A stretch of 55,717 nt of DNA from Candidatus Micrarchaeota archaeon (GTDB lineage Archaea; Micrarchaeota; Micrarchaeia; Burarchaeales; Fermentimicrarchaeaceae). The stretch covers positions 1-55,717 of the forward strand of contig JAPLWV010000026.1 in NCBI GenBank assembly GCA_026396385.1. Reading direction: 5' to 3'. The position numbers and the translations under genes were made by a program. The notes beneath the pieces are model-generated. The model worked only from the letters and a program-made list of their open reading frames with translations. It did no database searches and was not told the DNA's origin. Positions 4,824 through 44,204 of the stretch are shown here, piece by piece. Each line of letters begins with the position of its first letter. The stretch's first letter is position 1.

Positions 4824-5888
4824 ATGCTCAAGACAAGAGAGTATCAAGGACTGCCTGAAGCCGGGAATAAAGTGCAGGCGGAATTCCTGAAGGCTGCAGA
4901 AACCACACGCAGGATAGAGGAGTTTTCCAGGCACGTGGGTTCGGAAGAAATAATCAAAAGGGTACACGACAAACACGGCAGATTCATATTCCTAGACAAA
5001 GAAACTGTTTCAAAACTGCAGCTGAGAGCAAAGATGTCGTGCAAATGGGAAGAGGCGGGAGACTCCATTATGATGACTCCTCTGGAGAAAGCAGCAATTC
5101 AAGCGAAAATAATATTCAACCCTTCTAGCAATTCATTCATGGCAGTGCTTCCTAAGGGCATGCAGCCTGCGCAGCAATTCAAAGCCGGGGATGACGTGGA
5201 GTGGAGCTATGAGGGAAGGAGCCGGCTCTCGCTGGAAAAAGTGCTCTATCCTGGTATAATTCCCATCGTAACACTTAGCAGCGGCGGAAAGCACGGGACA
5301 GTCAGCCTACCTAAAAATATGGCTCTTGCGCTGGGGCTTGGGGGAAAGAAGCTGTGCGAATGGAATGAAGAGGGGAATTGCCTGATAATAACTCCTCTGG
5401 AGTTCAAAAAAAAGGACCAGCTCGTATCAAAAATTACGGAAAATCACAAAAGAGTGAGGTTGTATATACCTAGAGCAGTACAGGGAGCCGTCCGGGAAGG
5501 CGATGAAGTCATCATCAAGGGCATGGGGGACGGGAAGCTCTACATGTGGCGAATGGAAGACTTTCCCGGAGAGACTGGAGACAAGCTGCGCAACATCACA
5601 AAGATAAGGGGTTATGGCAGCGACAGCCTGCAAGCAACCATTACAAATTCAATGGCAAAGGAACTGAAAATCGAGAATGGGATGCACGGAGTCTGGACTC
5701 TTCATAAGGGGGAGCTATGGCTTGAGCTGACGCATGAGAACCCGCATATTACCGCAGTGATAGAGGAGAGGACGCCCAAGCACATATTCAGCATCTACCT
5801 ACCAGATGATATCGGCAAATCCCTCAAGGAGGGAGACAGGATTACCCTGGAAGTGTGGTACGGGAAGCTTTACATCCAGAAGAAGTAA
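4824..5888 (+). CDS. Protein built from about six tandem AbrB/SpoVT-like (swapped-hairpin) modules
   Basis: Six ~45-55-aa modules match the AbrB/MazE pattern (x-hhh-LPKxhxxxLxhxxGDxhxhxxxxGxhhhxP): GRFIFLDKETVSKLQL.., FMAVLPKGMQPAQQFKAGDDVEW.., GTVSLPKNMALALGLGGKKLCEW..CLIITPLE, VRLYIPRAVQGAVREGDEVIIKGMGDGKLYMWRME, LQATITNSMAKELKIENGMHGVW..LWLELT, FSIYLPDDIGKSLKEGDRITLEVWYGKLYIQK. Confidence 0.55.
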   Translation: MLKTREYQGLPEAGNKVQAEFLKAAETTRRIEEFSRHVGSEEIIKRVHDKHGRFIFLDKETVSKLQLRAKMSCKWEEAGDSIMMTPLEKAAIQAKIIFNPSSNSFMAVLPKGMQPAQQFKAGDDVEWSYEGRSRLSLEKVLYPGIIPIVTLSSGGKHGTVSLPKNMALALGLGGKKLCEWNEEGNCLIITPLEFKKKDQLVSKITENHKRVRLYIPRAVQGAVREGDEVIIKGMGDGKLYMWRMEDFPGETGDKLRNITKIRGYGSDSLQATITNSMAKELKIENGMHGVWTLHKGELWLELTHENPHITAVIEERTPKHIFSIYLPDDIGKSLKEGDRITLEVWYGKLYIQKK

Positions 5889-5916
5889 GCGGCAAGGCTT
5901 GATGTAAAATGAACCC

Positions 5917-5933
5917 AAAGCAATCTTAATATA
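5917..5933 (+). promoter_or_regulatory. Motif A copy 6 (ATGAACCCAAAGCAATCTTAATATA)
   Basis: About 30 nt upstream of the start at 5957. Confidence 0.5.
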
Positions 5934-5956
5934 TCTCCGAACATCAAGTATGACTG

Positions 5957-7393
5957 ATGGTCTCTTTAACATTCTTCGGCGGGGTCGGGGAGATAGGCGG
6001 CAACAAGATACTGCTGAAGGACAGGAAGACAAGGATATGGCTTGACTTCGGGATGAGCTTCTCCAAATCTGCCGAGTTCTACTCGGATTTTCTCGGTCCC
6101 AAGAAGTGCAATGGAATCGGGGATTACATCGAACTGGGGCTTGTCCCGGACATCAAGGGGCTTTACCGGGAGGACTACCTGAAGAAGATGGGCAGGGACA
6201 AGGAGGAAAGCGGGTTTGACGGGATCCTGCTCTCCCACGCGCATCTTGACCACAACGGGCATTTGGACCTCGTGAGGCCTGACATACCGCTATACTGCTC
6301 CCAGGGTTCGAAATGCATAATGGAGATGATTGACACAACAAGCGGCGGCGAGTTCCTGAGGGAAAAGGTAAGCTTCCGCTTCGTCCCGAAGAAGAGGGGG
6401 GAAGGTTTGAAGCGGCTGGACAGCAGGGAGCCTGAAGGGATTGTTGAGAGAGTTGTCAACGTGGTTGAAAAGCCGTTTAAAGTCGGGGATTTGGAAGTCA
6501 CGCCAATGCCTGTGGACCATTCCCTTCCGGGTGCATTGGCATTCGCAATAGAGACAAGCGAAGGTGCAGTCATCTACTCCGGGGATTTCAGGTTCCACGG
6601 CCTTAATGAGAAGAAGACAAGGGAATTCGTTGAAAAAGCCTCTGGGTTTGAGCCGGCTGCATTCATCTGCGAAGGAACCAGGATTGACAGCAACAAGACA
6701 GAGACTGAGAGGGATGTTTACAGCACGGTGACGAAGTTCTGCAAGGACTGCGAGGCCCTCATAATCGCAAACTACCCCCTCCGTGATACCGACAGGATGA
6801 CGACTTTCCTGAATGCTGCAAAGGACCATGACAGGAAGCTGGTGGTAAACCTGAAGCAGGCTTTCCTGCTTGATGCGTTCGGGAAGGCAGGGCAGGAAGC
6901 TCCAAGGCTGGAGGATGTCTCTATCTACATTCCGCGCAAGTCCTGGGGCCTGGTGACAGAAGACATGGATCCTGACCTGGTGCACGGTGATTATGAAACA
7001 TGGGAGTGCCAGTTTATTGATGCTGGCAACTCGATAACCTGCGAGGAGCTCAGGAAGAACCAAGATGAATATCTGTGGCACTGCGACTTCTTCGAGCTTA
7101 AGGAGCTTATTGACGTGAAGCCGATGAAGGCAAGCAAGTACGTGTGGAGCGTTACCGAGCCATTTGACGTGGTAATGGAGCTTGACGAGCAGATAGTGAT
7201 GAACTGGCTCGCGCATTTCAACATAACCGAGATAACCAGGTCGCATGTGTCCGGGCATGCAAACGGGCGGGATCTGAAGGAGACGATTGACGCGATTAAA
7301 CCGAAGAAGCTCTTTGCAGTGCATACGGAGCATCCTGAGATGTTTGAGAATGTGAGAGTGGTGGAGAAGGGGAAGGAGTGCGAGGTTGGGTGA
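5957..7393 (+). CDS. Metallo-beta-lactamase/beta-CASP ribonuclease, archaeal RNase J-like
   Basis: N-terminus FFGGVGEIGGNKILL. HxHxDH motif LLSHAHLDHNGHL. C-terminal HVSGHANGRDLKETIDAIKPKKLFAVHTEH matches the RNase J SGHA...P...HGE pattern. Size (478 aa) fits archaeal RNase J. Confidence 0.7.
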   Translation: MVSLTFFGGVGEIGGNKILLKDRKTRIWLDFGMSFSKSAEFYSDFLGPKKCNGIGDYIELGLVPDIKGLYREDYLKKMGRDKEESGFDGILLSHAHLDHNGHLDLVRPDIPLYCSQGSKCIMEMIDTTSGGEFLREKVSFRFVPKKRGEGLKRLDSREPEGIVERVVNVVEKPFKVGDLEVTPMPVDHSLPGALAFAIETSEGAVIYSGDFRFHGLNEKKTREFVEKASGFEPAAFICEGTRIDSNKTETERDVYSTVTKFCKDCEALIIANYPLRDTDRMTTFLNAAKDHDRKLVVNLKQAFLLDAFGKAGQEAPRLEDVSIYIPRKSWGLVTEDMDPDLVHGDYETWECQFIDAGNSITCEELRKNQDEYLWHCDFFELKELIDVKPMKASKYVWSVTEPFDVVMELDEQIVMNWLAHFNITEITRSHVSGHANGRDLKETIDAIKPKKLFAVHTEHPEMFENVRVVEKGKECEVG

Positions 7394-7452: not shown

Positions 7453-7782
7453 GTGAAGAGGAAATTTGAGTTTGAGGGTTATAATGCCGTTGTTGAGAAA
7501 GAGAGAATGAAGGGTGGGAGGGCGGATGTTGCGGTATTTCCTACTGAGAAAAGCCCCCATAAGAAGAGAATTGCAGTTGAAGTTACTTTTGAGTACAAGA
7601 ATGCTGTTTCTAATATAAAGAAAGATTTTAAAGATGGGTTTGATGAGGTAATAATATTATACGAGGAGGAGTATACTAAGAGCTTCGTGGAGTCACATAT
7701 TAAAATGGAACTTGAGAAAGAGGAGCAGGAGAGAGTAACGTTCGAGGATGTAAGAGGATATGCGGCATACGTGAGCGTGTGA
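7453..7782 (+). CDS. Small hypothetical protein, possibly PD-(D/E)xK nuclease-fold
   Basis: 109 aa, GTG start. GRADVAVFP ... RIAVEVTFEYK loosely fits a D...ExK arrangement. First gene of a tightly packed three-gene set. Confidence 0.3.
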   Translation: MKRKFEFEGYNAVVEKERMKGGRADVAVFPTEKSPHKKRIAVEVTFEYKNAVSNIKKDFKDGFDEVIILYEEEYTKSFVESHIKMELEKEEQERVTFEDVRGYAAYVSV

Positions 7783-7791
7783 GGTGAACAG

Positions 7792-8157
7792 ATGGATTCA
7801 GAAGCTACTTTGGATGACTTAAAGAAGACCGTTAAAAAGTTTTGCGAAGATAGGGACTGGGATCAGTACCACAATGCGAAAGATTTAGCAATAGGGATTA
7901 TAACCGAATCATCAGAACTGTTGGAGCACTTCCGCTTCAAGTCAGAAAAGGAGATAGAGGAGATGTTCAAGGACTCAAGGAAAAAAAGTGAGATTTCAGA
8001 GGAGATGGCGGACGTATTCTACTTCCTCCTTAGACTGGCTCAGAAGTATGATATAGACCTCGGTTCTGAGCTGAGTAAGAAAATAGCACACAATGAGAAG
8101 AAATACCCAGTTGAAAAATCAAGAGGCTCTAATAAAAAATATACGGAGCTGCTGTAG
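7792..8157 (+). CDS. MazG-like nucleoside triphosphate pyrophosphohydrolase (DCTPP1/all-alpha NTP-PPase type)
   Basis: FCEDRDWDQYHNAKDLAIGIITESSELLEHFRFK and EEMADVFYFLLRLAQKYDIDL give the ExxE and EExxD metal-binding helices. KIAHNEKKYP tail. Confidence 0.8.
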   Translation: MDSEATLDDLKKTVKKFCEDRDWDQYHNAKDLAIGIITESSELLEHFRFKSEKEIEEMFKDSRKKSEISEEMADVFYFLLRLAQKYDIDLGSELSKKIAHNEKKYPVEKSRGSNKKYTELL

Positions 8158-8159
8158 AT

Positions 8160-10013
8160 ATGAAATTATATGAAGGAGATTTAGAGCAATTCAGAGAAGA
8201 CGTTCTTAATAATAGAATCGCAGATATAATGCGGAATAAAGCCAATGAGTATAAAGTAAATGTTAGCAGATCCGAGTATAGGTCTTGGCAGATTTCTCCA
8301 AGAGTCTTTAAAGATGCAGTTTCTCAGCTCCATAATAACAAGATTATACTCGAATACAGATTCCCTAACTATGGCGGAAGAATAGACGTCATTCTTTTTG
8401 GTAAGCATAACGGGTCGGACCAGGTAGTCATTACAGAATTGAAGCAATGGTCAAATGATAGTGTAAGCGACTGTGAGGATGAGGGAAGCGTGATAGCAGA
8501 GATTAATGGGCATATGGTGAAAATGGCTCATCCATCATCACAGGTTGAGGGTTATTACCTTAGCTTAATAGACAACTTACAAGTTTTTGATGAGAAACCA
8601 GAGATAAAATTGCATGCTTCTGCATACTGCCATAACTACTCTAGAGAGAATGACAAGGTGCTATACCAGGATAAATTCAAAGAAATAACCGACAAATATC
8701 CACTATTTACAAAAGAGGACAATGCAAAACTTGGCGAATATCTCAGAGACAGGCTGGTAGACGATAACGGGATAGAAGTCTTTAATCGCTTCGTAAACAG
8801 TCCTGTAAGGCCATCTAAAGGTTTAATACAGCACGTAGGGGACATGATTAACAAGCAACAGATATTTAATTTAATTGACGAGCAGATACCGGCACGCAAT
8901 GCAATTATCAGCAGGGCAAAGGAATTGGCAAAGTCTGGTAAGAAATTCGTGATAATTGTAAAGGGAGGGCCCGGCACTGGAAAGTCTGTCATTGCACTGG
9001 AGACAATGGCAGAACTCCTGAGGAAAGGGAAGAACGTATTTTATGCAACAGGCTCATCCGCATTTACAAATACTCTTAGGAAGGTTGCGGGTAAAAGGGC
9101 AAAAGACAGGTTCAAGTATTTCTTCAGCTTTACGCGTCATAAAGAAAATGAGATTGATGTGCTAGTGTGCGATGAGGCACATAGGCTAAGGAAGAATAGC
9201 GCAGATTACGGAGTTCCTTCCCATCTCAAATCAGAGTTGCCGCAGGTTGAAGACTTGATACGGCCAGCTAGACTAACTGTCTTCTTCATAGATGAGCATC
9301 AGATAGTAAGGCCGAGTGAAGTTGGGGATGTTGCACTGATTAGACAGGCTGCTTTAAAGCTTAATGCTGAAGTAGAGGAATTTGATTTAAAAACTCAATT
9401 TAGATGCGGAGGTTCAGAAGCCTATTTGCAATGGCTGGAGAATACTCTTGGCATAACAGAATCCGAGGTGCGGATGCTGGGTAAAAATGAACAGATGGAA
9501 TTTAAAATATTTGACAGCCCAGAAGCGCTTAGGGATGCGATATACGAGAAGAACAAGGCAAGGCCTAATTTCGCTAGAATCGCAGCAGGTTTCTGCTGGC
9601 CATGGAGTAAGCCGAACGCTGATGGTAGTTTAGTTAATGATGTAAAAATAGGAAGTTTTGAGATGCCGTGGGAGAGGAAGGACGAGTTTTGGAAATGGGC
9701 CACAGATGAGAGCGGAATGGAGCAGGTTGGAACAGTTTATACTGCACAGGGGTTTGAATTTGACTACATTGGGGTTATTTTTGGGAAGGATTTGATTTAT
9801 GACAAGGAGAATAACACTTGGAAGAGCGATCCGAAGAGTTCGCATGACAGCATGATAAAAAGGAATAATGAAACTTTGACAAAACACTTGAAAAACGTAT
9901 ATCGCGTTTTGATGTCAAGGGCGCATAAGGGAGTTTACATCTATTTTATGGATAAGGATACGGAGAACTTCTTTAAGTCTAGAGTAGAAAGCTACAACCC
10001 GCCCCCAAGGTGA
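8160..10013 (+). CDS. DUF2075-type (Schlafen-helicase-like) P-loop ATPase with an N-terminal PD-(D/E)xK nuclease-like domain
   Basis: N-terminal GRIDVILFG..VVITELKQW (D..ExK). Walker A VKGGPGTGKSV. Walker B VLVCDEAHRL. C-terminal YTAQGFEFDYIGVIFG and VYRVLMSRAHKGVYIY, typical of DUF2075/SF1-like proteins. Starts 3 nt after the MazG stop. Confidence 0.75.
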   Translation: MKLYEGDLEQFREDVLNNRIADIMRNKANEYKVNVSRSEYRSWQISPRVFKDAVSQLHNNKIILEYRFPNYGGRIDVILFGKHNGSDQVVITELKQWSNDSVSDCEDEGSVIAEINGHMVKMAHPSSQVEGYYLSLIDNLQVFDEKPEIKLHASAYCHNYSRENDKVLYQDKFKEITDKYPLFTKEDNAKLGEYLRDRLVDDNGIEVFNRFVNSPVRPSKGLIQHVGDMINKQQIFNLIDEQIPARNAIISRAKELAKSGKKFVIIVKGGPGTGKSVIALETMAELLRKGKNVFYATGSSAFTNTLRKVAGKRAKDRFKYFFSFTRHKENEIDVLVCDEAHRLRKNSADYGVPSHLKSELPQVEDLIRPARLTVFFIDEHQIVRPSEVGDVALIRQAALKLNAEVEEFDLKTQFRCGGSEAYLQWLENTLGITESEVRMLGKNEQMEFKIFDSPEALRDAIYEKNKARPNFARIAAGFCWPWSKPNADGSLVNDVKIGSFEMPWERKDEFWKWATDESGMEQVGTVYTAQGFEFDYIGVIFGKDLIYDKENNTWKSDPKSSHDSMIKRNNETLTKHLKNVYRVLMSRAHKGVYIYFMDKDTENFFKSRVESYNPPPR

Positions 10014-10017
10014 GTGA

Positions 10018-10131
10018 GTAAGAATCAATGACGAAATAAACAAAACCGATGCAGAGATAGATGAACTGGTTTATAAATTATATAGGATTACAGATGAAGA
10101 AAAGAAAATAATTAAAGATAGCTTGAAATAG
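10018..10131 (+). pseudogene. Relic of the C-terminal tail of a restriction-modification (type IIG/TaqI_C-like) methyltransferase
   Basis: Reads VRINDEINKTDAEIDELVYKLYRITDEEKKIIKDSLK*. The xIDxLVYxLYxLTxEExxxI tail is characteristic of many R-M/BREX methyltransferases. There is no upstream body, and the frame differs from the DUF2075 gene. Confidence 0.55.
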
Positions 10132-10162
10132 GTTATAAAATATTGCAGTAGATAAGTTAACC

Positions 10163-10639
10163 ATGGCTATTATTTTCGTCGACCAGAGCGGAAAAGTGGA
10201 GAAGACAAATAAGCATACCGTCATAGCGACAAGCGCATCGGAAAAAAAGAGCTATACGGTAATGCTCCCAAGCTATTGGAAGAAGAGAATATGCGAGGAG
10301 ATAAAGCATTATCCCAGTGCTGCCCGCCATAGAAAGGTTCCCACTGTGAAGATTTTCTCGTTCTGCGTCTATCTTGCCATGCCGTATCTCAGAAAAGATG
10401 ATTCAATCGTGATAGATACAGAATATGCGGGCAAATCGAATGAAATCAAAAGCCAGCTTCTGGAACTCATAAGAGGGAAATATCCGGAATTCAAAAAAGA
10501 GCAGATAACCTCCCTCCAGATTGGGAAGGATATATACGTCCACAAGTTAGCAAATGAAACGTACAGGGGCATTAGAAAGCCGGATAAGGTTATAGATGAA
10601 ACAGACTTGTCCAGATTGTTTGGAAAGAAAAAGAACTAA
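10163..10639 (+). CDS. Hypothetical protein
   Basis: 158-aa ORF, AT-rich. The N-terminus IIFVDQSGK is faintly reminiscent of DUF3800-type starts, but I recognise no clear family. Confidence 0.5.
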   Translation: MAIIFVDQSGKVEKTNKHTVIATSASEKKSYTVMLPSYWKKRICEEIKHYPSAARHRKVPTVKIFSFCVYLAMPYLRKDDSIVIDTEYAGKSNEIKSQLLELIRGKYPEFKKEQITSLQIGKDIYVHKLANETYRGIRKPDKVIDETDLSRLFGKKKN

Positions 10640-10739
10640 GTGGCTCAGCGGATTTTCGCCGCCTCAAGTGGGTTTACCTTTGCGTCGTAGGCACCTCGAT
10701 TTCTCGAGTGTGTTGGCTACGGATCGGTAAACCAGCCAC
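10640..10739 (+). ncRNA. Candidate ~100-nt structured RNA or DNA element (nested helices). The strand is assumed; the helices would also form on the other strand.
   Basis: Nested complementarity read directly: GTGGC/GCCAC (outer), GCGG-attttcg-CCGC hairpin, GGTTTACC/GGTAAACC, CGTAG/CTACG, CTCGA-tttc-TCGAG. Starts 1 nt after the stop codon at 10637-10639. Confidence 0.35.
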
Positions 10740-11255
10740 GTACTAGTATGTGTAAATATATGTATATATACCTTACTGGGAAATATAAACTGGAGTATAT
10801 ATTACTGGTAACACGCTAGTTTCACGCTAGAATTTCATCAGACTTTTACTAGAGTTTAACCAGTTATGTATAATATAACATCACTGAAATCCTCGAAACC
10901 GTCCGGTTTCTGAAAAAAAGCGGTAAAATCCGGCAGGATAGGCAGTTTTCTCACAATTTCTAAAAAACTCAGAAAAAGCCGGTCTAGACCGGAGAAGCCG
11001 GTTCAGGCGTGAGCCTGCTTTGCCTGCGCCAAAGCGCAGCAAATGGCATTTCGACCGTTTCACGAGGAAGCAGAAAAACAGGTGAAATGGTAAAGCCTGC
11101 TTCAGCGACGACAGCTTATTTTGAACAGGCTACCGTTTCGACCGATTCTACAGACGTATTTTATACCCGAACGGAATATGCAGAAATTGACGAACTGGTC
11201 TGCAAGCTGTGCGGGACCACTCGGCTTTAAAAAACAGGGAATCCATAATTCACGC

Positions 11256-11471
11256 ATGGAAATCGCGGAAAGCGGGAAGCCGGAAAAGACAGCCGGTGCA
11301 AAGATGAGGGAGCACCGGAAGCTCCTGGAGAGGAAATTCAAGAGGCGCGAGGAGCTTTCCATGACGGCAGGGAAATGCCAGAAAGGGATGGGCGAAATAA
11401 AATGCTGGCAAAAGAACTGCAGGAAGAAGCTGAGGATCCGGCGCTCAAAGAGATTCAAGAAAAAAGGCTGA
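11256..11471 (+). CDS. Possible small, highly basic protein (71 aa)
   Basis: MEIAESGKPEKTAGAKMREHRKLLERKFKRREELS..CRKKLRIRRSKRFKKKG. No recognisable family. Lies in an otherwise non-coding GC-richer stretch. Confidence 0.2.
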   Translation: MEIAESGKPEKTAGAKMREHRKLLERKFKRREELSMTAGKCQKGMGEIKCWQKNCRKKLRIRRSKRFKKKG

Positions 11472-11489
11472 AAGGCGGCAAACGTGAGG

Positions 11490-12157
11490 TTATCCCTTCT
11501 TCATTCGCCTGAACTCCGAAAGCTCAACGGGCCTGGCGACCTCTATAAGCCTGTCGATCGCATCATTGATTGACTTCGCGTTTATCCCCATGATGTCGCC
11601 AATCACGTATTCATTCACCGGCCTGCCGGCCTTGTAGCAGGCATGGTATACCGCCGCAGCTGAGAGCGCCATGGGGTCGGAAACGGGCGTTTTCTTCCTC
11701 TTCTCGTATCTGGAGAGAGTGTCTTTCGCAATCCCTGCAACCTCCCCCTCATGCTTCCTGTCCAGCCAGCCGCTCTCCGCCAGGAAAGACACAGCAGAAT
11801 CAACGTAATCGGCCGGCTTCTCTATCATTTTCACATCTGTCATCTTCCTTGCTTTTTGCATCTCAGCCGGATCCACTGTCTGCCATATGTGCGCACCCCT
11901 GAGCAAGTCCACGGGGCATTTGTTGTTGTCCAGGGAGAGCTGCATTGCCACCCTCGCCTGGAGTTTGGGATTCAGGCCAAGCTTCTCAATCTTCTTGTAG
12001 AATTCGGAAGCATCGCCGATAATTGCTGCTATTTTTTCCTTACTCACAAACAATTTTGATTTTCCCTCGTGATAGGACTTAAGGGAGCCTTCAAGCAGCT
12101 TATCAAACGTCCTCGCTGGCGTTTCATCCATCTTCTTAATGGATATGGTTTCGCTCA
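11490..12157 (-). CDS. TFB/TFIIB-like cyclin-fold protein lacking the N-terminal zinc ribbon
   Basis: The likely start is ATG 12157 (MSETISIKK), about 30 nt downstream of a motif B TATA; the ORF-track start at 12257 would include the promoter. PADYVDSAVSFLAESG...DPMALSAAAVYHACYKAGRPVNEYVIGDIMGINAKSINDAIDRL matches the TFB core cyclin-repeat pattern. Confidence 0.5.
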
Positions 12158-12170
12158 TATGATCACGACA

Positions 12171-12196
12171 ATATTGCTCATTTTGAATATTTAAGC
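12171..12196 (-). promoter_or_regulatory. Motif B copy (gene orientation GCTTAAATATTCAAAATGAGCAATAT)
   Basis: Conserved cassette upstream of the TFB-like gene. Confidence 0.6.
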
Positions 12197-12263
12197 ATAA
12201 GCCCAAGATGCTTCGGAAATGCCAAGAAAAGCCAAACTTTAGCGCATGATTAATCAAAGAACC

Positions 12264-12776
12264 TCAGTGCTGGATTTTTAGTTTTTTCGCAGCCTGGTTC
12301 TCCTCTTTAATCCTGGCACTCCCCGCTTTTTCCAAGTTTTTAATTTCCTCATCCATTTCATGCACCCCGGCTGCCTTGCCGAAACCGTAACCAATCAGGG
12401 CAACGCCGGCTGCGAATGCAAGCTCCAATGCATTTTGCGGAAGGCCCAGCCTAAGCAGTTCACCCGCGGTTGCCGTAATGCCAACTGCAGCGCATGCAAT
12501 TACCCCGGCAGTTATATAGTTCGCACTGCGCGCAATTTTATCCTTCGCAATCTCCCGCAGCTCTTTTAGCTGCTCCTCAAGCGTCTTTACCTTACTCTCC
12601 ACTTTCTCTTTTAATTTCTGCCCGACTGTTTTCTTCTCGACTACTGTCTCCTTTGGCCCTTTTTGGATAGCCGGAAGCTTTGCAGCTTTAGATGTCCCCT
12701 CAAAGCTGGTTGTTATATCTCCTGAAAATTTATGGGGCTTTTCCTCAACTTTCTTCTCTACCATAAACATCACCAC
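12264..12776 (-). CDS. Coiled-coil membrane protein with an MVEKK-type N-terminus, function unknown
   Basis: 170 aa. Two hydrophobic helices (ANYITAGVIACAAVGITA, LAFAAGVALIGYGFG). The N-terminus MVEKKVEEK..AKLPAIQKGPKE is shared with the repeat protein at 2622. The probable start is ATG 12764. Confidence 0.6.
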   Translation of the reverse strand: MVMFMVEKKVEEKPHKFSGDITTSFEGTSKAAKLPAIQKGPKETVVEKKTVGQKLKEKVESKVKTLEEQLKELREIAKDKIARSANYITAGVIACAAVGITATAGELLRLGLPQNALELAFAAGVALIGYGFGKAAGVHEMDEEIKNLEKAGSARIKEENQAAKKLKIQH

Positions 12777-12777
12777 T

Positions 12778-12803
12778 AAAATTGCTCATTTTCAATATTT
12801 AAA
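12778..12803 (-). promoter_or_regulatory. Motif B copy (GTTTAAATATTGAAAATGAGCAATTT)
   Basis: Conserved cassette. The motif-internal ATG opens a 14-codon out-of-frame uORF. Confidence 0.6.
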
Positions 12804-12854
12804 CATAAGCCATAGCTGCTTTACCTTCGTCCTTTTCCAAAATAAGCTTTTAGG

Positions 12855-13301
12855 TTACCCAAGGGGTTGTTTTTCCAGCAATAACTGAGGTACTGTTTTC
12901 CGAATTCTTTTGTTACGTTCCTCCAACTCCTTGTTATGTTCCTTCAGCCATTCTTTTACTTGGGGGTTTTTTAGGAAATCCCCAATCTCTTTTTCCAAAT
13001 TCTTGGGTTCGGCGTTCCACAGGTGGACGGCATCTGAGTAAACTTGGATTTTATTTAATTCTCCACTCTGTGAGAAATCCAACTTGACATCTTGTGCAAG
13101 TTTTTCCTTACCACTAATACGACTACGCCACTGAAGCGTTCCATCGTCCGTAAGATGTATCATTATTTCTCTTGTGTCTCTATCGTTCGTTTTTCCCCAA
13201 CTCAATTCCTTTCCAACCCACGTCCTTTCTTTATTTAGTTCAAGCTTGACACCCTGAAACGTTATCTCTTCCGCCTTCTTTTCTACCATAAACACCACCA
13301 A
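12855..13301 (-). CDS. Hypothetical protein, paralog of the 31327-31821 product
   Basis: VKLELNKERTWVGK..IHLTDDGTLQWRSR..VKLDFSQSGELNKI..LWNAEPKNLEKEIGDFL..VKEWLKEHNK aligns with IELELTKDKSWAGR..VHFKEGGTITWCSR..VSLNFKQDGKLNRI..LWSANIEELERKMREFL..VKEWLKERNK. The probable start is ATG 13289. Confidence 0.6.
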   Translation of the reverse strand: MVVFMVEKKAEEITFQGVKLELNKERTWVGKELSWGKTNDRDTREIMIHLTDDGTLQWRSRISGKEKLAQDVKLDFSQSGELNKIQVYSDAVHLWNAEPKNLEKEIGDFLKNPQVKEWLKEHNKELEERNKRIRKTVPQLLLEKQPLG

Positions 13302-13303
13302 TT

Positions 13304-13329
13304 AAATTGCTCATTTTGAGTATTTAAGC
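13304..13329 (-). promoter_or_regulatory. Motif B copy (GCTTAAATACTCAAAATGAGCAATTT)
   Basis: Conserved cassette. Confidence 0.6.
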
Positions 13330-13368
13330 ATAACCTCAAGAGACACCTTGGTTTCTTCTAACTCCCTG

Positions 13369-14225: not shown

Positions 14226-15044
14226 TCACCCTTCGTCAGCCACTTCATCCTGTCTTTTAATCCACTTTTCGTAGGTTATGACTCCCCCAGCGGTTGCGTG
14301 CCTTACGTCTAGTAATTTTGCGTTTATGTTCCTCTCCGCACGTACGTCCCTTGCGCGTAGTGCCCCGCTTACGATTACATCCCTCCCCGCGTGTACGTCC
14401 CCGTCCGTGAGTATACGCTCCATGGTTATGTCCCCTCCTGCGCTTATGCTCCTGTCGTCACTGTCTACGTTTAGCCAGGAATCACTGTGTGCGTATATGT
14501 TCCGTCCGCGTATGTTTCCCCCTACATTCATGTGCCTATAAATTATGTCTCCTACTGTTACGTCTCCGTCCACTTGTACGTCCTCTCCGTCCATGTTTCC
14601 CCCTGCGGTTACGTTTCCTCTTATGTTTGTTTTCCCCCCCATTACGTCAAAATACGCTGTTACGTCTCCTCCCACGCTTAGGCCATATACTGCCATTACG
14701 CTGCTCATTGAGGTTATGTTCCCCCCTACGATTATGTGATTTGCGTTTACCACGTCCCCTGCGTGCATGTTCCCCCCTACGTTTAGGTCCCCCATCACTG
14801 CGTATCCCTCTAAGGTTAAGTTGCCTTTGACTGTCAGGTTAAATCTCTCCTTCCCCCGAATTTCGCCCTTCACTATCAGGTCCCCATCCACCACCATGTC
14901 CTTCTCCAATATCAGGTCTCCCTTTATGACTATCGCTCCACTATTCTTCCTTTCGTCTATTTTCGGGATTTTTTTAATCTTGTCCGTAATGTCTTTCTTA
15001 ATGTCTTCATTCGTTCTCACTTTTTCTACCATAAACATCAACAT
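14226..15044 (-). CDS. Beta-helical repeat protein, bactofilin/polymer-forming-cytoskeletal-like
   Basis: Dozens of short repeats of the type GDLxVxGxhxxGDVxV (DGDLIVKGEIRG, GDLNVGGNMHAGDVV, VGGDVTAYFDVMGG, GNVTAGGNMDGEDVQVDGDVTVGD...). MVEKV N-terminus. The probable start is ATG 15032. Confidence 0.5.
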   Translation of the reverse strand: MLMFMVEKVRTNEDIKKDITDKIKKIPKIDERKNSGAIVIKGDLILEKDMVVDGDLIVKGEIRGKERFNLTVKGNLTLEGYAVMGDLNVGGNMHAGDVVNANHIIVGGNITSMSSVMAVYGLSVGGDVTAYFDVMGGKTNIRGNVTAGGNMDGEDVQVDGDVTVGDIIYRHMNVGGNIRGRNIYAHSDSWLNVDSDDRSISAGGDITMERILTDGDVHAGRDVIVSGALRARDVRAERNINAKLLDVRHATAGGVITYEKWIKRQDEVADEG

Positions 15045-15046
15045 TA

Positions 15047-15072
15047 AAATTGCTCATTTTTGATATTTAAAA
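15047..15072 (-). promoter_or_regulatory. Motif B copy (TTTTAAATATCAAAAATGAGCAATTT)
   Basis: Conserved cassette. Confidence 0.6.
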
Positions 15073-15890: not shown

Positions 15891-15980
15891 GGGCCCGTGG
15901 CGCAGCCTGGATAGCGCGGCAAGAGCAATCCCGTAAGCCTTCTAAGCTGAAGGTCGTGGGTTCAAATCCCACCGGGCCCG
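15891..15980 (+). tRNA. tRNA-Arg(UCU) carrying a ~15-nt insertion/intron at a non-canonical position, 5' of the anticodon loop
   Basis: GGGCCCG-TG-GCGC-AGCCTGGATA-GCGC-G-[33 nt instead of 17]-AGGTC-GTGGG-TTCAAAT-CCCAC-CGGGCCC-G. The loop CTTCTAA and 3' stem GCTGA parallel the tRNA-Arg(CCU) at 39497. Removing ~15 nt (AGAGCAATCCCGTAA) restores a GCAGC/GCTGA stem. Confidence 0.75.
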
Positions 15981-16028
15981 CTTTTATTTGGAGGGTAGAG
16001 GGAACCGATAGGTTCCTCTGGTGATAAG

Positions 16029-44088: not shown

Positions 44089-44114
44089 TCTATCACTTTT
44101 GAGTTCCTCCTCAG

Positions 44115-44204
44115 CGGGCCCGGCGGGATTTGAACCCGCGACTCCCTGGTTTCCTCGTGTGAGTTTAAAAGCCAGGTACTCTGGCCAAGCTGAGTTACGG
44201 GCCC
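44115..44204 (-). tRNA. tRNA-Lys(UUU) with a ~15-nt intron at the canonical 37/38 position
   Basis: Reverse complement: GGGCCCG-TA-ACTC-AGCTTGGCCA-GAGT-A-CCTGG-CTTTTA[ACTCACACGAGGAAA]-CCAGG-GAGTC-GCGGG-TTCAAAT-CCCGC-CGGGCCC-G. Confidence 0.85.

Follow-up and report, generated by a model that had tools for sequence, protein, structure and literature searches.

The window analysed in the present work, meaning the whole stretch of 55,717 nucleotides (nt) at positions 1 to 55,717 of contig JAPLWV010000026.1 (assembly GCA_026396385.1, Candidatus Micrarchaeota archaeon), is archaeal chromosome which encodes PolD DP1/DP2, eIF2-gamma, ProRS and TBP, and its closest relatives are Micrarchaeota-like contigs. 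Three open reading frames (ORFs) lie on the same strand at 7453-7782, 7792-8157 and 8160-10013 (+), separated by gaps of 9 nt and 2 nt, exactly as described in an earlier note on this DNA, which had proposed them as a three-gene defence module. The unit that is conserved is the pair formed by the second and third genes, not the trio. This pair, which encodes a MazG-like nucleoside triphosphate (NTP) pyrophosphohydrolase and a DUF2075 nuclease-helicase, appears from sequence comparison to be a horizontally mobile two-gene module (7792-10013) whose most likely function is Nhi-type defence against viruses or plasmids, a reading that can be held with moderate confidence, and it probably represents a two-gene variant, so far undescribed, of the single-gene Nhi-like antiviral proteins. 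The features of the locus are as follows (aa, amino acids; SF1, superfamily 1).

7453..7782 (+): 109-aa orphan ORF starting with GTG; a second possible start, the ATG at 7507, gives 91 aa
7783..7787 (+): Shine-Dalgarno-like GGTGA within the 9-nt gap, 4 nt before the MazG ATG, read from the sequence; putative ribosome-binding site of the MazG gene
7792..8157 (+): 121-aa all-alpha MazG-like NTP pyrophosphohydrolase of the DCTPP1/RS21-C6 type (PF12643)
8160..10013 (+): 617-aa nuclease-helicase with Nhi-like architecture (PF09848, AlphaFold, Foldseek)
8262..8654 (+): predicted RecB/NERD-type PD-(D/E)xK nuclease domain, residues ~35-165 (invariant motifs in the homolog alignment, predicted core)
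8871..9959 (+): predicted DUF2075/Schlafen-group-3 SF1 helicase core, residues ~238-600 (Pfam, alignment, Foldseek)
8964-8987 (+): Walker A, GGPGTGKS, residues 269-276
9171-9182 (+): Walker B, DEAH, residues 338-341
Residues 581-591 of the nuclease-helicase: motif VI, YRVLMSRAHKG

The third gene is predicted to encode a RecB/NERD-type PD-(D/E)xK nuclease followed by a DUF2075/Schlafen-group-3 SF1 helicase, and the combination suggested by the earlier note is borne out by both halves of the protein. The helicase half matches the Pfam profile PF09848 (SLFN-g3_helicase/DUF2075) end to end, with 293.5 bits (cut-off 24) and an E-value of 3.2e-87, profile positions 3-354 of 354 being covered by residues 264-598, and its Walker A, Walker B and motif VI (YRVLxSRAxxG) are invariant in an alignment of 28 homologs. 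The nuclease half contains the IDVILFG...ITELKQW motif, at residues 75-81 and 91-97, and the residues E39, D76, E93-L-K95 and Q128-x-x-x-Y132, which are invariant in the alignment; we take this set to be of the RecB/Cas4/Dna2 type of PD-(D/E)xK, the QxxxY element being a mark of RecB-like nucleases. In the AlphaFold model of the 617-aa protein (predicted local distance difference test, pLDDT, 85.8) the predicted nuclease core has the order alpha-beta-beta-beta-alpha-beta, with the motif residues on alpha1, beta2, beta3 and alpha2, and the top Protein Data Bank (PDB) matches of the model in Foldseek are SLFN11, RecD2, SLFN14, the Dna2 nuclease-helicase and Dda. The protein has no match to Pfam NERD (PF08378) at E<=0.1, while its close homolog P0077 passes that model with 25.2 bits (cut-off 22.1) over the equivalent region, residues 63-148, and the window protein itself has a weak match to the PADLOC model “NERD+UvrD”. 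A phmmer search of the PDB sequences with the large protein returned nothing, and a PDB search with its profile gave solely marginal P-loop matches, to HelD, SLFN5/11 and RadA.

The second gene matches the Pfam family MazG-like (PF12643) with an E-value of 1.2e-13 and 51.6 bits (gathering cut-off 27), and its best solved relatives are the mammalian DCTPP1/RS21-C6 enzymes (2a3q, 6sqw), which align without gaps over residues 3-120 at an E-value of 1.5e-20. The ExxE...ExxD metal-binding site of MazG proteins is intact (E39, E42, E71, D74). Among 19 MazG proteins linked to DUF2075 genes, E42, E71 and D74 are invariant, E39, W23, H27, F47 and K50 are conserved in at least 90%, and the C-terminal YP..G..KY tail is conserved as well; this tail, the metal site and an RDWxQ(F/Y)H motif are the elements which the gene 2 product has in common with DCTPP1/RS21-C6. 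DCTPP1 itself serves housekeeping in eukaryotes and is not partnered by a helicase, whereas gene 2 is prokaryotic. The DCTPP1 proteins are house-cleaning enzymes with a preference for modified dCTP. The MazG protein of the pair is only ~120 aa long, has no sensor or regulatory domain, and matches no PADLOC 2.0 model.

The association of these two genes was evaluated in 22 loci from a scan of genome collections and a further 80 loci from a profile-based metagenome scan. The pair is common: scanning of metagenomes gave at least 519 relatives, and some three quarters of the loci sampled have MazG. The genome loci are archaeal (Woesearchaeota, Pacearchaeota, Micrarchaeota, Methanosarcinales, Bathyarchaeia) and bacterial (Omnitrophota, Planctomycetia, Syntrophaceae, Gammaproteobacteria, Saccharibacteria, Staphylococcaceae), and in tblastn searches of the 22 the gene abutting DUF2075 is a MazG homolog, on the upstream side in 16 and downstream in 1. 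A survey with hidden Markov models (HMMs) was based on the 89 loci which have at least 400 nt of upstream sequence; it places a MazG gene by or near the DUF2075 gene in 69 of these informative loci (~78%), distributed as follows.

MazG directly upstream of the DUF2075 gene: 60/89 loci
MazG adjacent or near (over-extended ORF starts, RadC between, or 1.2 kb off): 8/89 loci
MazG downstream of the DUF2075 gene: 1/89 loci
No MazG: 20/89 loci, mostly from a clade ~40% identical to the window protein

When the look-up was made in the reverse direction, starting from MazG relatives, DUF2075 was found immediately downstream in three of four cases, and the idea of a dedicated MazG partner is thereby upheld from both sides. 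The gap between the genes is 2 nt here and 0-9 nt elsewhere. Annotated isolates keep the pair at 25-34% identity: a Priestia aryabhattai plasmid carries DUF3578-MazG-DUF2075, with DUF3578 overlapping the start of MazG, beside a type I restriction-modification (R-M) system and a restriction endonuclease; a plasmid of Halalkalicoccus jeotgali B3 carries the pair; and the order on Bacillus thuringiensis pBT62A is MazG-HNH-DUF2075. Microcystis phage Mwe-JY31, in which a gene of 109 aa adjoins DUF2075, is counted among these cases of the pair. Loci of the pair in isolates lie at NC_014298.1 272434-274676, NZ_CP083270.1 36894-40212 and NZ_CP044979.1 46773-50365.

The pair appears to move between distant hosts. 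Archaeal and bacterial copies are ~60% identical, the nearest relatives of the window copy occur in unrelated phyla and on plasmids, and the family is present on many plasmids. It is rare in the viral collections, where a search of IMG/VR with the single window protein gave no match, a profile search of it gave three full-length relatives, and the phage collection gave four records; a virus origin was rejected on these results. The pairwise identities of the MazG proteins and those of the DUF2075 proteins are only weakly correlated (rho 0.17), a value which suggests that the linkage is kept despite a shuffling of partners. Since the identities of the partners correlate so weakly, they make no case for a tight physical interface between the two proteins.

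The first gene, by comparison, is a lineage-specific neighbour, and its description in the earlier note as a small nuclease-like protein was supported by no tool. The 109-aa protein has no match in Pfam, NCBIfam or PHROG and only a non-significant one in PADLOC (DpdC, E 0.014, 13 bits), and its AlphaFold model has a pLDDT of 62 and finds no Foldseek match at E<0.1; the candidate small nuclease was set aside on these grounds, there being no significant match in four HMM libraries and a poor model. A search of 5.8 billion proteins yielded four relatives, all on Micrarchaeota-like contigs; relatives at 89-90% identity have the same synteny as the window, and all three genes stay together in its closest relatives (L023-L027). 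One of the genomes concerned, that of another Candidatus Micrarchaeota (locus L028; GCA_013425335.1, JACCLG010000050.1), has a copy with 81% nt identity and the same stop codon. The true start of the small gene is uncertain, because the homology to this copy begins near the internal ATG at 7507.

It may be asked whether the three genes nevertheless form a single system, in which the 109-aa protein would work with MazG and the nuclease-helicase, either as a small nuclease or as an adaptor. The small gene is probably co-transcribed with the pair here, as the 9-nt gap with its Shine-Dalgarno-like sequence suggests; it is as low in GC as the pair, it belongs to a trio which its closest relatives preserve, and its product contains a loose D25...E47-x-K49 pattern. 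Against this stand its absence from all 102 other DUF2075 loci (22 genome and 80 metagenome), the scarcity of its relatives, its lack of a family or of any fold match from a low-confidence model, and the fact that its copy in L028 is followed not by the MazG-DUF2075 pair but by a DpdB-like gene together with a type II R-M system. A three-gene system is accordingly very unlikely, and the trio reading was set aside on the strength of the homolog search and context look-ups; of the three families whose co-occurrence had been expected, two travel together and the third does not. Because different cargo follows its copy in L028, we take the small gene to mark the edge of a swappable defence slot.

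The slot in L028 that is equivalent to the site of the pair (8350-11594) lacks MazG and DUF2075, and is occupied by a DpdB/DndB-like protein of 654 aa, whose N-terminal stretch is Mrr-like, together with a complete type II R-M system (restriction endonuclease E 8.5e-52, methyltransferase E 1e-99). To judge from these contents, the slot seems to be a hot spot for defence genes in this lineage of archaea. In the window the pair is also compositionally distinct, in keeping with the AT-richness noted before: its GC content is 0.41 compared with 0.47 for the window, which places it in the 4th percentile among windows of the same size, and its GC content at third codon positions (GC3) is 0.43-0.51 compared with 0.64-0.69 in the genes for PolD and the metallo-beta-lactamase (MBL) protein.

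These observations bear on the simplest alternative, namely that a housekeeping sanitiser of the nucleotide pool and a replicative or repair helicase are adjacent by chance. The window is chromosomal and contains the core genes for PolD DP1/DP2, eIF2-gamma and ProRS, and MazG-type proteins are classical house-cleaning enzymes. Yet the related genome has other genes in the equivalent slot, the GC and GC3 of the pair depart from those of the core genes, its closest counterparts occur in phyla far removed from this one and on plasmids, and its adjacency is conserved far above that of a chance neighbourhood, all of which make a housekeeping origin extremely unlikely.

In the flanks of the operon, the “R-M methylase tail relics” reported there find no support: the flanking ORFs at 10881-11471 have no Pfam match at E<=1, and tblastn with the methylase and restriction enzyme of L028 gave nothing better than E 0.03-0.27. 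The “other accessory genes” turn out to be lineage-specific hypotheticals. A 158-aa ORF without a family match lies on the same strand 150 nt 3' of the nuclease-helicase (10163-10639), and is conserved solely in the closest relatives L023, L025 and L026. A scan for sigma-70 promoters and terminators showed no excess over shuffled expectation, a bacterial-type scan being unsuited to an archaeon.

The wider neighbourhood of the family was surveyed with PADLOC and Pfam in 150 ORFs from 58 loci, without a background control, so that its results are suggestive rather than statistical. Strong PADLOC matches were obtained for SoFic, type IV and type II methyl-directed restriction endonucleases, PDC-S13, ShosA, AbiEi, DRT and GajB-like helicases, and Pfam matches for RadC, Fic, PDDEXK_1, HNH and ParB_N. 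A true PDC-S41 gene (965 bits, positions 1-652 of 657) is directly downstream of the pair in L001; KwaA, ParE, Fic, HEPN_RiboL-PSP, PIN and RadC are among the other neighbours. A DUF3883 gene adjoins a DUF2075 gene, and the DUF3578 protein of Priestia is presumably an McrB-N-like reader of modified DNA. A defence-like context, claimed at the outset, is recognisable in these R-M, restriction and defence-candidate neighbours and in the R-M system of the L028 slot. DUF2075 NTPases have also been placed beside modification-dependent restriction enzymes in a study of 2019, which suggested a role in phage attenuation (PMC6765204).

Several loci deserve to be described individually. The relatives without MazG, which belong to the ~40% clade, are found beside HNH_2 endonucleases in five loci (L098, L100, L108, L117, L123), with a Cas1 of 510-520 aa directly upstream in two (L113, 2286-3848; L119, 981-2513), and with TacA-TacT toxin-antitoxin pairs in three (L114, L115, L123). 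A Hymenobacter canadensis plasmid (L030, 1904-5890; NZ_CP114769.1) has two tandem DUF2075 genes unaccompanied by MazG, with a DUF4747 gene and a site-specific DNA methyltransferase upstream of them, in an apparent defence cluster. On contig ERZ21878447 ctg45461l (L034, 3439-5712) a MazG protein that is 75% identical to that of the window has an HNH_5 protein 5' of it and a 448-aa protein 2 nt after it, and a KwaA gene adjoins. The 448-aa protein matches nothing in Pfam or PADLOC and does not resemble DUF2075, and was rejected as a DUF2075 relative, being unrelated and without a family; it may stand in for DUF2075 as another effector of this MazG.

A gene of the RadC/JAB type (HNHPSG...PS..D) is a recurrent third neighbour of the pair (L008, 7861-8535; L009, 7861-8526; L011, 1039-1749; L012, 4946-5626; L014, 8605-9339; L019, 4933-5646; L041, 7124-7783; and several metagenome loci), and in L011 it lies between the two genes. 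About one fifth of the relatives of the nuclease-helicase, with lengths of ~790-835 aa, carry a C-terminal Peptidase_S24 (LexA/UmuD-like) domain (for example L001, 830-3223; L004, 6001-8394; L005, 2070-4460; proteins P0016, P0026, P0056 and others), which keeps an LEAA(A/C)G cleavage-site-like motif, the GKSMEP serine and the KKY lysine of a Ser/Lys dyad. This pattern suggests that self-cleavage triggered by RecA* or single-stranded DNA (ssDNA) may act as a regulatory switch in such homologs. The window protein has no S24 domain in Pfam or in the alignment.

The pair might on this evidence be a mobile module for DNA damage or replication stress, in which MazG would sanitise damaged deoxynucleoside triphosphates (dNTPs) and the nuclease-helicase would process stalled forks in the manner of Dna2 or RecD, with RadC and the LexA-like S24 domain as its tie to the SOS response; such a module could serve the maintenance of mobile elements or counter-defence. 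The S24 domains of many homologs with their AA(A/C)G motif and Ser/Lys dyad, the recurrence of RadC/JAB and its place between both genes in L011, a MutT gene near the pair in Priestia, the presence of Dna2 and RecD2 among the best fold matches, and the occurrence of the pair in one phage record would all be explained in this way. The distribution of the pair is however patchy and shaped by horizontal transfer, archaeal copies being ~60% identical to bacterial ones, and is thus unlike that of a core repair pathway; its neighbours are R-M systems, toxin-antitoxin systems and defence candidates rather than repair operons; the window copy lacks the S24 domain; and the sensing of damage or ssDNA also triggers known defence systems (PMC10732053), so that the features in question do not discriminate. 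A function of this kind is therefore considered unlikely.

The known systems with which the pair must be compared include, first of all, Nhi (nuclease-helicase immunity of Staphylococcus epidermidis) and Nhi-like (Millman et al. 2022), which by their published definition combine an N-terminal nuclease with DUF2075 in a single-gene antiphage protein, and whose role in defence has been validated by experiment. In the model put forward for Nhi, as given in PMC10732053, the protein is activated by the phage replication complex, including the phage single-stranded DNA-binding protein, and then degrades phage DNA. The window protein shares with Nhi and Nhi-like the order of a nuclease followed by a DUF2075 (PF09848) helicase on one polypeptide, the accessory or defence contexts and a likely action on replicating foreign DNA. 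It differs in that it reaches only 43.4 bits against the PADLOC Nhi model PDLC02372, over profile positions 183-330 of 470 (the MazG-linked relatives likewise have only partial matches to the PADLOC Nhi model); Nhi and Nhi-like are moreover single-gene systems whereas the subfamily of the window has MazG in ~78% of the informative loci, and many of its members add the LexA-like S24 domain at the C terminus. The window copy is also archaeal.

The top PADLOC model for the window protein is PDC-S41 (E 1.2e-23), which belongs to the same Pfam family, but the match to PDLC05014 amounts to 81 bits in three fragments, compared with 965 bits end to end for a true member, and PDC-S41 is therefore best regarded as a paralogous subfamily. 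The PADLOC AbiO model gives a partial match of 43 bits. Membership in Nhi, AbiO and PDC-S41 as PADLOC defines them was rejected because the matches are partial, at 43-81 bits against 965. The earlier statement that the trio corresponds to no named system thus holds for these three models, but the large protein does have the published domain organisation of Nhi and Nhi-like. In the literature searched, no paper mentions DUF2075 together with MazG, or MazG together with Nhi, none was found on PDC-S41, and the combination of MazG with Schlafen gave nothing relevant.

More distant comparisons can be made with eukaryotic proteins. The Schlafen proteins of group 3 (SLFN11, SLFN14, SLFN5) have a C-terminal domain of the same Pfam family, and SLFN11 is the top Foldseek match; the N-terminal nuclease of the SLFN proteins has a different, tRNA-cleaving fold. 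Dna2 similarly combines a PD-(D/E)xK nuclease with an SF1B-like helicase, and its nuclease domain carries an Fe-S (iron-sulphur) cluster. Sequence identity to the SLFN proteins and Dna2 is 10-14%, and their domain order and partners are different.

A comparison with Gabija (GajA nuclease and GajB UvrD-like helicase/NTPase) is relevant to the role of MazG. Both are compact modules in which a nuclease-helicase is combined with nucleotide hydrolysis, but the matches to the GajB models are marginal (E 0.005), MazG and GajB have unrelated folds, and the present system carries nuclease and helicase on one chain. Defences that act by nucleotide depletion exist. The pair could accordingly follow another defence logic, in which MazG depletes canonical (d)NTPs and thereby frees the nuclease-helicase from inhibition by nucleotides, as in Gabija, or acts as an antitoxin-like brake which, until infection occurs, destroys a nucleotide activator. 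The tight translational coupling of the genes, with the 2-nt gap here and the 0-9 nt gaps elsewhere, would suit such an arrangement, as would the combination of MazG with the 448-aa protein in one genome, which suggests a generic accessory to various effectors; Gabija itself couples a nuclease to nucleotide hydrolysis (bioRxiv 10.1101/2023.05.02.539174). The constitutive hydrolysis of canonical dNTPs by an enzyme of ~120 aa without a regulatory domain would however be costly, the closest solved relatives of the MazG protein are the DCTPP1 enzymes, and the weak co-evolution signal (rho 0.17) speaks against a tight interface of the toxin-antitoxin type. The probability assigned to this logic is low.

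Defence of the Nhi kind by the pair could then proceed as follows. The MazG and nuclease-helicase genes are translationally coupled and lie in a variable, low-GC defence slot; the helicase, driven by ATP, would load on foreign replication intermediates, and the N-terminal nuclease would degrade them. MazG would act as a constitutive “pool-cleaning” partner which hydrolyses non-canonical dNTPs made by the virus, for example precursors of the 5-substituted dCTP/dUTP type, and would in this way deny the virus the protection of base modification or stall its replication, exposing substrates for the nuclease-helicase. Non-canonical dNTPs are the most likely substrate because the enzyme is DCTPP1-like, because the constitutive hydrolysis of canonical dNTPs by a protein without a sensor domain would be costly, and because DUF2075 genes recur with readers of modified DNA.

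Comparative genomics gives good support to the prediction that MazG and the nuclease-helicase form a coupled defence module. The identities of the domains, the integrity of the catalytic motifs, an adjacency kept in both bacteria and archaea, neighbourhoods of the defence type and the occurrence on plasmids and in accessory regions are established, and from them we infer the defence function, its target and the substrate of MazG. Several points weigh against it. Nhi and Nhi-like work as single genes, so that the known kind needs no partner, and the window protein is by sequence a member of none of the PADLOC families Nhi, AbiO and PDC-S41. MazG is missing from 20 of the 89 loci and so is not obligatory for every relative, and a MazG protein of ~120 aa without a sensor domain could equally serve repair or housekeeping. 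Most of the 150 neighbouring ORFs are not defence genes, and the recurrence of RadC and of S24 domains in homologs also fits a DNA-damage response. A broader proposal, in which MazG and DUF2075 would constitute a widespread, so far undescribed two-component immune system of bacteria and archaea that destroys modified dNTPs made by the virus, removing its shield of modified bases or stalling its replication, and degrades the viral DNA thus exposed, is rather unlikely.

The interest of the pair lies in the fact that Nhi-type proteins are known as stand-alone antiphage weapons, for which a dedicated nucleotide pyrophosphohydrolase partner has so far not been described. Since the pair spans bacteria and archaea and includes the culturable H. 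jeotgali B3, P. aryabhattai and B. thuringiensis, it is directly testable. If MazG targets modified dNTPs, the host would have in it a reply to the hypermodification of viral DNA; should it rather act by depleting or gating nucleotides, it would represent a new logic in nucleotide-based immunity; in either role it would fill a gap in the annotation of defence in DPANN archaea. It may also help to explain the Schlafen and DCTPP1 proteins of eukaryotes. Because each partner has a human protein (DCTPP1, SLFN11) as its closest solved relative, there is a hint of an ancient link between the sanitation of the nucleotide pool and Schlafen-type guardians of the genome, which would follow if the two-component immune system were real.

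Some further observations concern other parts of the window. Upstream of the pair, at 4824-7393, a 354-aa protein with an AbrB/MazE-like domain precedes an MBL/beta-CASP gene; in the corresponding region of L028 (4209-6178) its place is taken by a Csa3/CARF-domain gene that overlaps the 5' end of the MBL/beta-CASP (RNase J-like) homolog; the product of the MBL/beta-CASP gene could, to judge from this arrangement, be a nuclease regulated by signalling. A repeat of ~35-55 nt is present at 12173-12206, 12762-12811, 13287-13343 and 15030-15070, and also matches L028 at 14979-15035. It sits at the 5' ends of, or upstream of, minus-strand genes whose products begin with MV(M/V)FMVEKK, and which are read here as a paralogous family with a conserved leader or promoter. 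ARAGORN, finally, calls a 91-nt tRNA with an unreadable anticodon at 15891-15981 (+), which has no Rfam match, and a 91-nt “tRNA-Stop” with the anticodon TTA at 44114-44204 (-), which matches the Rfam tRNA model with 56.9 bits. In both cases the bacterial mode has probably misread an archaeal tRNA that contains an intron; for the second, a UAA-reading suppressor is an alternative candidate.

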